A stretch of 64,000 nucleotides of DNA, taken from NCBI RefSeq assembly GCF_056712565.1, contig NZ_CM160072.1. One strand, 5' to 3'. This document shows positions 2,702 to 55,658 of this stretch, piece by piece (position 1 is the first letter of the stretch; each line of letters starts with the position of its first letter). The notes under the pieces are model-generated. The model ran no database searches, was not told the DNA's origin, and was given only the letters and a program-made list of their open reading frames with translations. Made by a program: the position numbers and the translations under genes.

Positions 2702-3643
2702 ATGAAGCTGATACGCGGCATACATAATCTCAGCCAGGCCCCGCAAGAAGGGTGTGTGCTGACTATTGGTAATTTCGACGGCGTGCATCGCGGTCATCGC
2801 GCGCTGTTACAGGGCTTGCAGGAAGAAGGGCGCAAGCGCAACTTACCGGTGATGGTGATGCTTTTTGAACCTCAACCACTGGAACTGTTTGCTACTGATA
2901 AAGCCCCGGCACGGCTCACCCGGCTGCGGGAAAAACTGCGTTATCTTGCAGAGTGTGGCGTTGATTACGTGCTGTGCGTGCGTTTTGACAGGCGTTTTGC
3001 GGCGTTAACCGCGCAAAACTTCATCAGTGATCTTCTGGTGAAGCACTTGCGGGTAAAATTTCTTGCCGTAGGTGACGATTTCCGCTTTGGCGCTGGTCGT
3101 GAAGGCGATTTCTTGTTATTACAGAAAGCGGGCATGGAATACGGCTTCGATATCACCAGCACGCAAACTTTTTGCGAAGGTGGCGTGCGTATCAGCAGCA
3201 CCGCCGTGCGTCAGGCGCTTGCGGATGACAATCTGGCTCTGGCAGAAAGTTTACTGGGGCACCCGTTTGCCATCTCCGGGCGTGTAGTCCACGGTGATGA
3301 ATTAGGGCGCACTATAGGTTTCCCGACGGCGAATGTACCGCTACGCCGTCAGGTTTCCCCGGTGAAAGGGGTTTATGCGGTAGAAGTGTTGGGCCTTGGC
3401 GAAAAGCCGTTACCCGGCGTTGCAAACATCGGAACACGCCCAACGGTTGCCGGTATTCGCCAGCAACTGGAAGTGCATTTGTTAGATGTTGCAATGGACC
3501 TTTATGGTCGCCATATACAAGTAGTGCTGCGTAAAAAAATACGCAATGAGCAGCGATTTGCATCGCTGGACGAACTGAAAGCGCAGATTGCGCGTGATGA
3601 ATTAACCGCCCGCGAATTTTTTGGGCTAACAAAACCGGCTTAA
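2702..3643 (+). CDS. ribF: Bifunctional riboflavin kinase / FMN adenylyltransferase
   Basis: 313 aa ORF MKLIRGIHNL...; upstream of ileS. Confidence 0.95.
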   Translation: MKLIRGIHNLSQAPQEGCVLTIGNFDGVHRGHRALLQGLQEEGRKRNLPVMVMLFEPQPLELFATDKAPARLTRLREKLRYLAECGVDYVLCVRFDRRFAALTAQNFISDLLVKHLRVKFLAVGDDFRFGAGREGDFLLLQKAGMEYGFDITSTQTFCEGGVRISSTAVRQALADDNLALAESLLGHPFAISGRVVHGDELGRTIGFPTANVPLRRQVSPVKGVYAVEVLGLGEKPLPGVANIGTRPTVAGIRQQLEVHLLDVAMDLYGRHIQVVLRKKIRNEQRFASLDELKAQIARDELTAREFFGLTKPA

Positions 3644-45033: not shown

Positions 45034-47385
45034 TCAAAATAGCCCAAGTTGCCCGGTCATAAGTGTAGCAAAATTATCCTCAATAAAAGGGAGTATTCCC
45101 TCCGCCACGGGTTGTAACTGGCGGGTCAGATAGTGTTCGTAATCCAGCGGTGAACGTTGGTAGTCCAGCGGCTCCGGGCCGTTGGTGGTCCATACGTACT
45201 TAATGGTGCCGCGGTTCTGATATTGCAAGGGGCGACCGCGCTTATGGTTTTCTTCATCGGCAAGGCGAGCGGCGCGTACATGAGGCGGAACATTACGCTG
45301 ATATTCGCTCAGCGGACGGCGAAGGCGTTTACGGTAAACCAGCCGCGTGTCCAGTTCGCCCGCCATCAGCTTGTCGATGGTTTCGCGCACGTATTCCTGA
45401 TATGGCTCGTTGCGGAAGATGCGCAGGTAAAGCTCCTGCTGAAACTGCTGGGCCAGCGGCGTCCAGTCGGTGCGCACGGTTTCCAGCCCTTTAAACACCA
45501 TCCGCTGTTTGTCGCCCTCCTGAATCAGTCCGGCGTAGCGCTTTTTGCTGCCGGTATCGGCCCCGCGAATGGTTGGCATCAGAAAACGGCAGAAATGGGT
45601 TTCATACTCCAGTTCCAGTGCGCTGGTCAGCCGTTGTTTTTGCAGCGTTTCCGCCCACCAGGCGTTAACGTGCTGCACCAGTGCACGACCGATTTTCGCT
45701 GCTTCTTCTTCCGAATGTGCACCTTTCAGCCAGACAAACGTTGAGTCGGTATCGCCGTAGATAACATCATAGCCCTGCGCTTCAATCAAGGTTTTGGTTT
45801 GCCGCATGATCTGATGACCACGCATGGTGATCGACGATGCCAGGCGTGGATCGAAGAAACGGCAGGCGGTGGTGCCGAGCACACCATAAAAGGCATTCAT
45901 AATGATCTTCAGCGCCTGCGAAAGCGGCTTATTACCCTGACGTTTGGCTTCATCGCGCCCGTGCCAGATGTTAGTCACAATCTCCGGCAGGCAATGTTTC
46001 TCCCGTGAGAACCAGGCATCGAGAAAACCTTCGGTACTGTGCTCTGGATCAGGCTGCGCCATGCCTTCCACCAGCCCGACGGGATCAATCAGAAAGGTGC
46101 GGATGATCGACGGGTACAGGCTTTTGTAGTCCAGCACCAGCACCGAATCATAAAGCCCAGGTCGCGAATCCATCACGTAGCCGCCAGGGCTGGCGTGCGG
46201 CGGCACTTCGCCGAGATTAGGCGCGACATAACCAGCGCGATGCATACGGGGAAAATAGAGATGACCAAACGCTGCCACCGAACCGCCGTGTCGATCTACC
46301 GGCAGGCCGTTCACCGTCGCCCGTTCGAGCAAAAACGGCATGATTTCAGTTTTGTGGAAGATCTGCGTCACCAGCTCGCAATCTTTCAGGTTATAAGTTG
46401 CCAGCGCAGGCTTATCTTCGGCGAAACGGCGGTCAATTTCGTCCATTCGATCCCACGGGTTATCGATAGATTTTCCTTCGCCTAATAACTCCTGAGCGAC
46501 GGTTTCCAGCGAGAATGAAGAGAAATTCCAGAACGCGGATTTCAGCGCCTCGATACCGTCGATAATCAGTCGCCCTTTGGCCTGAGCAAAAAAGACGTCG
46601 TTTTTAAAGCCGTGCTCGCGCCACTCCAGCTCGCTGTTATCACGCCCCAGACGCAGCGGAATACGGTAACGCTCGGCATGTTTTTGCAGCATTCGCAGAT
46701 CGAACTGCACCACGTTCCAACCGATGATCACATCAGGATCATGAGTCGCAAACCAGGCGTTAAGTTTTTCCAGTAGCAGCGGGCGGCTGGCGACGTATTC
46801 CAGTTCAAAATCGAGCGCGGAGGCGTCGCCATTCTCTGGCCCCAGCATATAAACGATACGCTGCCCGCAACCTTCCAGGCCGATGCAGTACAGCTCACCG
46901 TGGCGGGTGGTTTCAATATCAATAGAAACCCACTTGAGCGGCGGACGATAGTCGGGATGCGGTTTCAGACGGGCATTAACGATAGCGCCGTTGCGCATAT
47001 CACCCTCGACCCACACTGGCGAGGTGATAAACCGCTCCATCAGATAGCGTTCTGGCGGGCGCACATCGGCCTCGTAGACGGTAACGCCACCTTCACGCAG
47101 GCGCTTTTCGTAATTCATCAACTGGCGATGGGCGCGACAGTAAAGGCCATACACCGGCTGGCGGTGAAAATCTTTTAACGCCAGCGGCGTCAGGCGAAAG
47201 CCTTGTTCACCCTGCAAAATATGCTGAGCGCGGGGAACATGATCGGCGGGAATAAATGCCACGGACTCTTGCGGCGCAAGCGTAACCTGCAACGGCCCGT
47301 TGTCCGTTGCCAGCCAGAAGGAAACTTCGGTCCCTTGCGGGGTGTCCCGCCAGTGTCGGGTTAAGATAAAACCTGCCTGCGCCAC
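45034..47385 (-). CDS. polB: DNA polymerase II (B-family)
   Basis: 783 aa; exonuclease and YGDTDS polymerase motifs. Confidence 0.95.
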
Positions 47386-47459
47386 GCTGAAAATCCAATA
47401 AAAAACCAGGCTTGATTATAGCCTGGTTTCGTTTGATTGGCTGTGGTTTTATACAGTCA

Positions 47460-48155
47460 TTACTGCCCGTAATATGCCTTCGCGCCATGCTTACGCAGAT
47501 AGTGTTTATCCAGTAGCGTTTGCTGCATATCCGGTAACTGCGGCGCTAACTGACGGCAGAATATACCCATATAAGCGACTTCTTCCAGCACGATGGCGTT
47601 ATGCACCGCATCTTCGGCATTTTTGCCCCATGCAAACGGGCCGTGAGAATGGACCAGCACGCCGGGCATTTGCGCTGCATCGATACCCTGTTTTTCGAAG
47701 GTTTCTACGATGACGTTACCGGTTTCCCACTCATATTCACCGTTGATTTCTGCGTCGGTCATTTTGCGGGTGCAGGGAATGGTGCCGTAGAAATAGTCGG
47801 CGTGGGTGGTACCGGTTGCTGGAATCGACTGACCCGCCTGCGCCCAGATGGTGGCGTGGCGCGAGTGTGTGTGCACAATGCCGCCAATAGACGGGAATGC
47901 CTGATAGAGCAGCCGGTGAGTTGGCGTGTCGGAGGAGGGCTTTTTCGTACCTTCAACCACTTCACCGGTTTCGATGCTGACCACGACCATATCGTCAGCG
48001 GTCATGGTGCTGTAGTCGACGCCGGAAGGTTTGATCACCAGGACGCCGCGCCCGCGATCAACGGCGCTGACATTGCCCCAGGTGAGCGTGACCAGGTTGT
48101 GTTTTGGCAGCGCCAGGTTGGCTTCTAAGACCTGGCGTTTGAGATCTTCTAACAT
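47460..48155 (-). CDS. araD: L-ribulose-5-phosphate 4-epimerase
   Basis: 231 aa [33 protein letters not shown]... Confidence 0.95.
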
Positions 48156-48159
48156 GTTG

Positions 48160-48438
48160 ACTCCTTCGTGCCGGATGCGCTTTGCTTATCCGGCCTACAA
48201 AATCGCAGCGTGTAGGCCTGATAAGACGCGTCGGCGTCGCATCAGGCGGTGAATGCCGGATGCGCTTTGCTTATCCGGCCTACAAATCCGGAACGCGTAG
48301 GCCTGATAAGACGCGCCAGCGCCGCATCAGGCGGTGAATGCCGGATGCGCTTTGCTTATCCGGCCTACAAATCCGGAACGCGTAGGCCTGATAAGACGCG
48401 TCAGCGTCGCATCAGGCGTTACATACCTGATGCGGCTA
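48160..48438. repeat. BIME: about three tandem ~100-bp units of paired REP palindromes between araD and araA
   Basis: tgccggatgcgctttgcttatccggcctacaaa...gtaggcctgataagacgcg..gcgtcgcatcaggcg repeated three times with small differences. Confidence 0.65.
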
Positions 48439-48439
48439 C

Positions 48440-49942
48440 TTAGCGACGAAATCCGTAATACACTTCGTTCCAGCGCAGCGCGTCTTTAAACGCTGGAAGG
48501 CGGGTATCGTTATCAATCACTGTGATTTCAATGTCGTGCATCTCGGCGAACTGGCGCATATCGTTGAGGTTCAGCGCATGGCTGAAGACGGTATGGTGCG
48601 CGCCACCGGCAAGGATCCACGCTTCGGAAGCGGTCGGCAGATCCGGTTGCGCTTTCCACAGCGCATTCGCCACCGGCAGTTTCGGCAGGGAGTGCGGTGT
48701 TTTCACCGTGTCGATGCAGTTAACCAGCAGACGGTAACGATCGCCGAGATCAATCAGGCTGGCGACAATGGCTGGACCGGTTTGAGTGTTGAAGATCAGG
48801 CGGGCAGGATCGTCTTTACCGCCAATACCGAGATGCTGAACGTCGAGGATCGGTTTCTCTTCCACAGCGATCGACGGACAGACTTCCAGCATATGGGAGC
48901 CGAGTACCAGGTCATTACCTTTCTCGAAGTGATAGGTGTAGTCCTCCATAAAGGAGGTGCCGCCCTGCAGACCGGTTGACATCACCTTCATGATGCGAAG
49001 CAGGGCGGCAGTTTTCCAGTCGCCTTCGCCCGCAAAGCCGTAGCCCTGCTGCATCAGACGCTGTACGGCCAGACCCGGAAGCTGTTTCAGGCCGTGCAAA
49101 TCTTCAAAGGTAGTAGTGAAAGCGTGGAAGCCACCTTGTTCCAGGAAACGCTTCATCCCCAGCTCAATACGCGCCGCTTCCAGCACGTTCTGTCGTTTTT
49201 CGCCGTGGATTTGTGTGGCAGGTGTCATGGTGTAGCAGCTTTCGTACTCATCGACCAGCGCGTTAACATCGCCGTCGCTTATGGAGTTCACCACCTGCAC
49301 CAGATCGCCAACCGCCCAGGTATTGACGGAGAAACCAAACTTGATCTGTGCGGCAACTTTATCGCCATCGGTGACCGCTACTTCACGCATGTTATCGCCA
49401 AAACGGCAGACTTTCAGATGACGGGTATCCTGTTTAGAGACCGCCTGACGCATCCAGGAGCCAATACGCTCATGTGCTTGTTTATCCTGCCAGTGACCGG
49501 TAACAACGGCATGTTGCTGACGCATACGCGCGCCGATGAAGCCGAACTCGCGACCGCCATGCGCGGTCTGGTTCAGGTTCATAAAGTCCATGTCGATGCT
49601 GTCCCACGGCAGCGCCGCGTTGAACTGGGTGTGGAATTGCAGCAACGGTTTGTTGAGCATGGTCAGGCCGTTGATCCACATTTTGGCCGGGGAGAAGGTG
49701 TGCAGCCACACCACCAGACCAGCGCAACGATCGTCGTAATTCGCGTCGCGGCAAATAGCGGTGATTTCATCCGGCGTGGTGCCCAGCGGTTTCAGCACCA
49801 GTTTGCAGGGCAACTTCGCTTCTGTATTCAGTGCATTAACAACGTGTTCCGCATGTTGCGTCACCTGGCGCAGAGTCTCCGGGCCGTAAAGATGTTGGCT
49901 GCCAATTACAAACCACACTTCATAATTATCAAAAATCGTCAT
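48440..49942 (-). CDS. araA: L-arabinose isomerase
   Basis: 500 aa [30 protein letters not shown]... Confidence 0.95.
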
Positions 49943-49952
49943 TGTCGTGTCC

Positions 49953-51991
<2,039 letters not shown>

Positions 51992-55567: not shown

Positions 55568-55658
<91 letters not shown>

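Follow-up and report, generated by a model that had tools for sequence, protein, structure and literature searches.

A tandem BIME-2 array of variable unit number in the araA-araD spacer of Escherichia coli

The araA-araD spacer and its tandem array

The window (the whole 64-kb stretch of DNA that was analyzed) carries the araBAD operon and polB on the minus strand and araC on the plus strand, the latter with an NCBIfam score far over the cut-off. Table 1 gives the positions of the genes and of the elements described below.

Table 1. Genes and sequence elements of the araBAD region, with positions in the window
Feature	Position	Strand	Evidence
polB	45034-47385	-	NCBIfam score far over cut-off
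araBAD intrinsic terminator (AAACCAGGCTATAATCAAGCCTGGTTTTTTATT)	47396-47429	-	Sequence; stem AAACCAGGC/GCCTGGTTT, then T-run
araD	47460-48155	-	NCBIfam equivalog match over cut-off
araA-araD intercistronic spacer, 284 bp	48156-48439	-	ORF coordinates and NCBIfam; part of araBAD mRNA
araD Shine-Dalgarno sequence, AAGGAG (on mRNA)	48161-48166	-	Read from sequence; 5 nt upstream of ATG 48155-48153
BIME-2 tandem array	48169-48418	.	Tandem Repeats Finder, three-copy repeat finding, unit alignment
Y-type REP, unit 1 (GCCGGATGCGCTTTGCTTATCCGGCCTAC)	48170-48198	+	RNA hairpin, -12.9 kcal/mol, z = -3.4
Z2-type REP, unit 1 (mRNA strand GCCUGAUGCGACGCCGACGCGUCUUAUCAGGCCUAC)	48212-48247	-	RNA hairpin, -21.1 kcal/mol, z = -6.0
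naRNA4-like segment, second	48215-48280	-	RF02564, 57.4 bits
Y-type REP, unit 2	48255-48283	+	Sequence, RNA fold, mapped K-12 gyrase positions
Z2-type REP, unit 2	48297-48332	-	RNA hairpin, -20.8 kcal/mol, z = -4.1
naRNA4-like segment, best (Y of unit 3, 7-nt linker, Z2 of unit 2)	48300-48365	-	RF02564, 58.9 bits
Y-type REP, unit 3	48340-48368	+	Sequence, RNA fold, mapped K-12 gyrase positions
Z2-type REP, unit 3	48382-48417	-	RNA hairpin, -21.4 kcal/mol, z = -6.7
Truncated fourth Y REP (ACCTGATGCGGCTAC)	48425-48439	+	Sequence; abuts araA stop codon
araA	48440-49942	-	NCBIfam equivalog match over cut-off
araB	49953-51653	-	NCBIfam equivalog match over cut-off

Most of the spacer between araA and araD is occupied by a tandem repeat, to which Tandem Repeats Finder assigned a period of 85, 2.9 copies, 93% matches, no indels, and a score of 444; it was the only strong tandem repeat of the window, and by far the strongest. 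A repeat finder placed three copies at spacings of 85 and 85 bp. Pairwise comparison of the 85-nt units gave identities of 77/85, 76/85, and 80/85 (5 to 9 differences per pair), and the differences were confined to the linkers or to the apical part of the Z2 hairpin, with none in the main stems. The array covers 250 of the 284 bp of the spacer (88%), or ∼93% if the truncated REP at its araA end is included. The sequence-only reading of this DNA had described three near-identical tandem units between araD and araA, which these measurements confirm, and a spacer made up almost entirely of them, which is a fair description; its unit length of ∼100 bp, set against the measured period of 85 bp, was an overestimate.

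From position 48000 to 48600, the window is 100% identical to E. coli ATCC 11775. UTI89, S88, APEC O1, and many other strains of the B2 phylogroup obtained the same score as ATCC 11775 in the four-unit-query search described below, which suggests that they are identical at the spacer too. The RefSeq records of MG1655 and ATCC 11775 have no repeat feature annotated in the araA-araD spacer.

REP composition and hairpins

Read on the plus strand, each unit consists of a Y-type REP of 29 nt (GCCGGATGCGCTTTGCTTATCCGGCCTAC), a 13-nt tail-to-tail linker, an inverted Z2-type REP of 36 nt (GTAGGCCTGATAAGACGCG..GCGTCGCATCAGGC), and a 7-nt head-to-head linker (GGTGAAT). Unit 1 has AAAATCGCAGCGT as its 13-nt linker, and units 2 and 3 have AAATCCGGAACGC. 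When the transcribed strand was folded as RNA, the Y hairpins gave -12.9 kcal/mol and the Z2 hairpins -20.8 to -21.4 kcal/mol. The truncated Y REP pairs with the head of the Z2 REP of unit 3 (48408-48417) in a 10-bp terminal hairpin of -16.0 kcal/mol. None of 200 shuffles was as stable as any of the six REPs, and one of 200 matched the terminal hairpin; the fold of the whole spacer reached -141.8 kcal/mol (z = -6.1). An A-to-G change in the Z2 REP of unit 2 puts a G-U pair in place of an A-U pair, so that the stem is kept. As all six REPs fold as palindromic hairpins, the earlier interpretation of the units as paired REPs, i.e., BIMEs, holds.

REPs are imperfect palindromes, 20 to 40 nt long, that carry GTAG/CTAC at the foot, and the array contains six such elements of 29 or 36 nt, with either CCTAC at the end or GTAGG at the start of each. 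Across the window, 14 copies of the REP foot motif CTTATCMGGCCTAC were counted where 0.03 would be expected, with six of the 14 in the array and all of them spread over six separate intergenic sites; the occurrence is thus not due to chance, and the elements are members of a dispersed REP family. Queries made of the spacer plus its flanks found a median of 9 to 16 matching places per E. coli genome. The array itself is extragenic, lying between the start of araD and the stop of araA.

BIME class

Two classes of BIME are distinguished by Ton-Hoang et al. (PMC3333891): BIME-1, in which a y REP is combined with a z1 REP in a single copy and the L linker is long, often with an IHF site, and BIME-2, in which y and z2 REPs form multiple tandem copies with short linkers and a strain-dependent copy number. 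In the ara spacer, a Y REP (GCCGGATGCG...CCGGCCTAC) and an inverted Z2 REP (GTAGGCCTGATAAGACGCG...GCATCAGGC) alternate three times, and the naRNA4 consensus, itself Y-Z2, aligns with this pair. The linkers are short, 7 and 13 nt, with no long L linker, and the number of tandem copies, 2.9 here, varies among strains in alleles of 1, 2, 3, and 4 units. The array is a BIME-2; it has all of the sequence features of that class and none of those that set BIME-1 apart.

This assignment bears directly on the proteins that the sequence-only reading had associated with the array, DNA gyrase and IHF, as the gyrase statement fits a BIME-2 and the IHF statement does not. An IHF-binding BIME (BIME-1, RIB, or RIP) would accord with the binding of IHF by REP/BIME elements in general (PMC3333891, introduction), and like a BIME-1 the array is extragenic and has two inverted REPs, one of them of the Y type. 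However, the IHF target is the L linker of the single-copy Y + Z1 BIME-1 (PMC3333891), with a long, conserved sequence that is absent from the ara array, whose Z-type REPs are Z2 and not Z1 and whose units are joined in tandem by the short linkers. In addition, the IHF consensus WATCAANNNNTTR has no match in the spacer with 0 or 1 mismatch, and the K-12 orthologue is listed under BIME-2 and not BIME-1 (PMC6379681). We therefore consider IHF binding of this kind extremely unlikely and have dropped the attribution.

The K-12 orthologue as a substrate of gyrase and TnpA_REP

The orthologous array of E. coli K-12 has already been published, and its element, class, cleavage by gyrase, and use as a TnpA_REP substrate are all known. 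Sutormin et al. (PMC6379681) list "BIMEs2 66566-66813, 247 bp" between araD and araA in their table DS3, with three Topo-Seq gyrase cleavage sites under ciprofloxacin and three under rifampicin plus ciprofloxacin; the entry as it stands in that table also credits "Espeli, Boccard 1997: 2 cuts." These records agree with the gyrase binding proposed for such arrays by the sequence-only reading. The gyrase signals are at 66656, 66662/66663, 66741, 66748, and 66820-66827, with the strongest at 66826, and the same study reported a preference of gyrase for y over z2 REPs and a rise of the signals at BIME-2 with rifampicin, i.e., when transcription is blocked (PMC6379681).

The K-12 MG1655 locus has the same architecture as that of the window strain, with a spacer of 284 bp, three 85-bp Y-Z2 units, and a truncated Y REP at the araA stop. 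The two spacers differ by 16 substitutions in 284 positions and align without indels, so that a window coordinate equals the K-12 coordinate minus 18395; this mapping assumes that the reference used in PMC6379681 shares MG1655 coordinates here, an assumption supported by its BIME interval. Mapped in this way, the cuts at 66656 and 66663 fall at 48261 and 48268 in the Y REP of unit 2, those at 66741 and 66748 fall at 48346 and 48353 in the Y REP of unit 3, and the strongest signal, 66826, falls at 48431, which is offset 7 of the truncated Y REP. In successive 85-bp units, the K-12 cuts thus recur at offsets 7 and 14, in the contexts CCGGA|TGCG and GCTT|TGCT, and their location inside Y REPs agrees with the preference of gyrase for y over z2 (PMC6379681).

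Among the 16 substitutions is one in the truncated Y REP, where position 48428 is T in the window strain and G in K-12 (CCTGATGCG versus CCGGATGCG). With T at this position, the hairpin formed with the preceding Z2 head becomes perfect; the substitution lies 3 nt from 48431, the equivalent of the strongest K-12 gyrase cut. The linkers also differ, as K-12 has three copies of AAAATCGCAGCG and the window strain has one AAAATCGCAGCG and two AAATCCGGAACGC.

TnpA_REP is a REP-associated tyrosine transposase (RAYT) whose araD-A substrate is single-stranded DNA, and the oligonucleotides B315 and B316, taken from the MG1655 araD-A BIME, supported TnpA_REP cleavage and strand-transfer recombination in vitro (Ton-Hoang et al., PMC3333891). 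As DNA, the K-12 array is thus a gyrase cleavage site that is independent of transcription, with cuts at the same two Y REP offsets of successive units, and in single-stranded form it is cut and recombined in vitro by TnpA_REP. Both data sets are those of K-12 and not of the window strain, whose spacer departs from that of K-12 at 16 of its 284 positions, 48428 among them.

Copy-number variation in E. coli

Spacer alleles of 114, 199, 284, and 369 bp, read directly, contain one, two, three, and four units, respectively, and the 284-bp allele is found in both K-12 and the window strain. A fifth allele, of 168 bp, consists of one unit and a GC-rich palindrome of ∼54 bp (GAGAGGTCGTTTCCCCTCACCCCGGCCCTCTCCCCAAAGGGGCGAGGGGGAAAACAA) adjoining the araD start. 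An example of it is found in E. coli 97-3250 (NZ_CP027599.1; positions 457-624 of locus L003), corresponding to 48156-48439 of the window. The palindrome, which we take to resemble a boxC repeat, has no copy in the 64-kb window.

Allele shares were estimated from two even-step samples of the ranked E. coli matches, comprising 98 informative rows, in which classes were called by the length of the matched stretch and the sequence was checked for one or two representatives per class. Three units were present in 36/98 rows (37%), one unit with the GC-rich insert in 32/98 (33%), two units in 19/98 (19%), and one unit in 10/98 (10%); the single four-unit row (1/98) was the top-ranked match and is not representative. 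No genome without an element at the araA-araD junction was found among the E. coli genomes sampled. The sequence-only reading had called for a comparison of unit number across strains, and the outcome bears out the variability that it expected, with one to four units in complete E. coli genomes.

A synthetic four-unit query of K-12 sequence gave a 100% one-piece match in GM4792, XL1-Blue, and two other genomes. The 369-bp four-unit spacer lies at 357-725 of locus L006 in E. coli K-12 GM4792 (NZ_CP011342.2) and is also present in XL1-Blue (NZ_CP081007.1), whereas MG1655 and W3110 have three units. Unless these assemblies are wrong, unit number has changed within K-12 laboratory lineages, which is relevant to engineering at araBAD. 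The corresponding query built from units of the window strain detected no four-unit allele among its close relatives, and its best matches were all three-unit loci that were split in two pieces. Since the K-12 and window alleles differ in their linkers (AAAATCGCAGCG versus AAATCCGGAACGC), the three-unit state most likely arose independently in the two. Plausible drivers of the polymorphism of one to four units are the action of TnpA_REP and, with it, slippage of the 85-bp units or unequal exchange between them.

The araA-araD junction in other genera

We compared the junction in related species. E. albertii has a 114-bp spacer with one Z2-Y unit, and a REP pair occupies the spacers of Citrobacter werkmanii (96 bp), Superficieibacter (110 bp), and a proteobacterial metagenome-assembled genome (143 bp; L030). 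The junction is filled by CCCTCTCC/GGAGAGGG elements, which are like the GC-rich palindrome of the 168-bp allele, in Pseudocitrobacter (99-bp spacer) and Kluyvera (75-bp spacer). A single hairpin followed by a T-run is found in the 48- to 60-bp spacers of Leclercia, Enterobacter sp. Bisph1, and Mangrovibacter, and a hairpin with no T-run in the 49-bp spacer of Enterobacter sp. BIGb0383 (L013, ∼3004-3052). The hairpins of the first three share position and strand with the E. coli array, just upstream of the araD ribosome-binding site, but each is one GC hairpin with a T-run, is not a REP, and is not repeated. Rosenbergiella, with a 16-bp spacer, has no element.

Two side observations came from these loci. 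In Leclercia adecarboxylata, Mangrovibacter, and Enterobacter sp. Bisph1 (L009, L014, and L016, ∼3004-3060), the hairpin with its T-run is an apparent terminator inside the operon. In Enterobacter cloacae DSM 26481 (NZ_CP056117.1; L015, 1501-3000), the araA frame breaks near codon 57, after which there are stop codons in the original frame, and the rest of the gene still gives a 92% AraA match in tblastn; this araA is either a frameshifted pseudogene or the product of a sequencing error.

These comparisons bear on whether the array has any selected role. It could be a selfish or neutral passenger, REP/BIME elements having spread and expanded in tolerant intergenic gaps, and neither the ara operon nor the chromosome would then derive a selected function from it. 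Such an origin would suit the range of copy number from 1 to 4, the roughly one-third of sampled genomes that have one unit and an unrelated palindrome, the linker difference between K-12 and the window strain, which points to repeated independent expansions, and the different elements carried at this site by related genera. On the other hand, gyrase cleaves the array in vivo in K-12, every sampled E. coli genome has the element, and a strong hairpin is present in every Enterobacteriaceae spacer examined (47 to 143 bp), the only exception being Rosenbergiella (16 bp). We regard the passenger explanation as possible but on the whole doubtful.

In a more ambitious proposal, the junction may be a conserved Enterobacteriaceae slot for an attenuator or 3′ end, filled by interchangeable hairpins, with the E. 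coli unit number serving as a heritable dial for the AraD:AraBA ratio. If so, terminator-like hairpins, GC-rich boxC-like palindromes, and single or multiple REPs would replace one another at this site, and a dial of one to four units, changing even within K-12 laboratory lineages, would set the flux through toxic L-ribulose-5-phosphate. We think this improbable.

The array within the araBAD message

A scan of the spacer (48156-48439) found no sigma-70-like promoter and no hairpin with a T-run terminator. The hairpins of the array are followed by linkers or further REPs and not by a U-tract. An intrinsic terminator is located downstream of araD, in the araD-polB gap, where the scan flagged the palindrome on the plus strand only. 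With neither promoter nor terminator in the spacer and the operon terminator after araD, the array lies inside the araBAD message, as the sequence-only reading had placed it.

The same data leave practically no room for a nonrepeat element in the spacer, be it small ORFs, an internal araD promoter, an intrinsic terminator, or a CRISPR-like array. Mechanically called ORFs of 51 to 73 amino acids do overlap the spacer on the plus strand, but 85 is not a multiple of 3, so that alleles of one to four units would shift any reading frame, and the scan for promoters and terminators speaks against both of these. None of the readings of the spacer as coding ORFs, an internal promoter, or an intrinsic terminator was retained. 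A CRISPR array was likewise rejected, because repetition extends over all 85 bp of the period and hence also over what lies between the palindromes, leaving no unique spacers; the earlier reading had made the same argument.

On the mRNA, the first hairpin begins 5 nt past the araA UAA, and the last REP, the Y REP of unit 1, stops 3 nt short of the araD Shine-Dalgarno sequence, which is conserved in E. albertii. Liang, Rudd, and Deutscher reportedly dealt in 2015 with trans-translation and REPs located near stop codons. In the araBAD transcript, the array RNA would fill the stretch from the araA stop to the araD ribosome-binding site with six or seven stable hairpins. These would be expected to block 3′-to-5′ exonucleases, stabilizing the araBA part of the message, and to cause some Rho-assisted attenuation before araD, tilting expression toward araB and araA.

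Such a role for the ara array, as an exonuclease barrier or a partial attenuator, is one that we infer from three lines of evidence: the effect of the REP325 array on yjdMN, the protection of 3′ ends by hairpins, and the hairpins at this junction in other Enterobacteriaceae. REP325 is a six-unit Y-Z2 BIME-2 array between yjdM and yjdN whose transcription starts at the upstream gene's promoter, and it stabilizes yjdM and lowers yjdN about 10-fold, partly through Rho, with a ladder of hairpin-ended RNAs (2026 preprint). It is the best-studied model for the action of such an array on its own operon, as a stabilizer and a partly Rho-dependent attenuator, and the ara array resembles it in having tandem Y-Z2 units inside an operon, which align end to end with naRNA4 on the sense strand; it has three units compared to six in REP325. 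Stable hairpins with no U-tract define 3′ ends protected from exonucleases in Rho-dependent transcripts (PMC6061677). The REP stabilizers of malE-malF and hisJ-hisQ (Newbury et al. 1987, as cited in PMC6061677) are also intercistronic REP hairpins placed to protect the upstream message; according to that citation, protection from 3′ exonucleases was measured there, whereas at ara it would follow by analogy. REP effects are context dependent, and half-lives are not uniformly changed by REPs (2026 preprint). In the literature on araBAD mRNA processing and stability at this spacer, we found nothing specific on 3′ ends, half-lives, or the AraA:AraD ratio, and the RepRanger paper makes no mention of ara.

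The strength of any such effect is limited by two considerations. Strains thrive with one to four units or with a different element, which implies that a dosage effect is mild or weakly selected. Loss of AraD leads to arabinose sensitivity through accumulation of L-ribulose-5-phosphate. As cells short of AraD are poisoned by arabinose, selection should work against strong attenuation ahead of araD.

The likeness to REP325 also raises the possibility that the array is a source of naRNA4-type nucleoid-associated small RNAs that, with HU, bridge cruciforms and condense the chromosome. Two Y-linker-Z2 segments of the mRNA strand match naRNA4 (Rfam RF02564), the Y-Z2 RNA of REP325, over the full model with E values of about 1e-9, and a role with HU in the nucleoid was proposed for REP325 RNAs by a 2015 study. 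However, both matches lie under the Rfam gathering score of 59.5, by 0.6 and 2.1 bits, respectively, and the naRNA4 model differs from the ara segments in the top of the Y hairpin (8 nt versus 3 nt) and in the Y-Z2 linker (13 nt versus 7 nt). Moreover, REP325/naRNA4 caused no measurable nucleoid compaction and REP-REP contacts were undetected in the 2026 preprint, whose authors overlap with those of the 2015 study, and the ara array is transcribed only upon arabinose induction of the operon. A source of nucleoid-associated RNAs is therefore very unlikely.

Taken together, the data are very probably best explained by the BIME-2 of the E. coli araA-araD junction, acted on by gyrase and TnpA_REP at its K-12 orthologue and with the putative RNA role outlined above. 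The feature is real, was correctly located, and was essentially correctly interpreted from the sequence; it is a textbook element already characterized at this locus, and the finding is an ordinary one, since the K-12 orthologue has been catalogued and tested. Only mildly new are the spectrum of alleles and the recurrence of hairpin elements at the junction across genera. Of modest value are the corrected IHF attribution and the coexistence in E. coli of alleles with one, two, three, and four units and with one unit plus a GC-rich palindrome, for the four commoner classes of which we provide a rough, sample-based distribution. As other genera keep a strong hairpin at the same place, the locus offers a convenient natural allelic series for relating REP unit number to expression within an operon.

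Other REPs in the window

Several further REPs were seen in the window. A cluster at 41154-41271 contains a 19-bp direct duplication, GTAGGCC(T/G)GATAAGACGCG, by which a truncated Z2-like foot is connected to a chimeric REP whose CCGG stem is of the Y type and whose top is like that of Z2; ∼45 bp further along is a Y REP of reverse orientation that has the longer, canonical top (GCCGGATGCGGCGTGAACGCCTTCTCCGGCCTAC). At 55569-55653, there is a degenerate convergent pair, composed of a Z2-like REP with the foot CCTGC and a Y-like REP in whose stem GTCGGAT replaces GCCGGAT. Single REP feet are found at three more places, 7027, 17119, and 21598.
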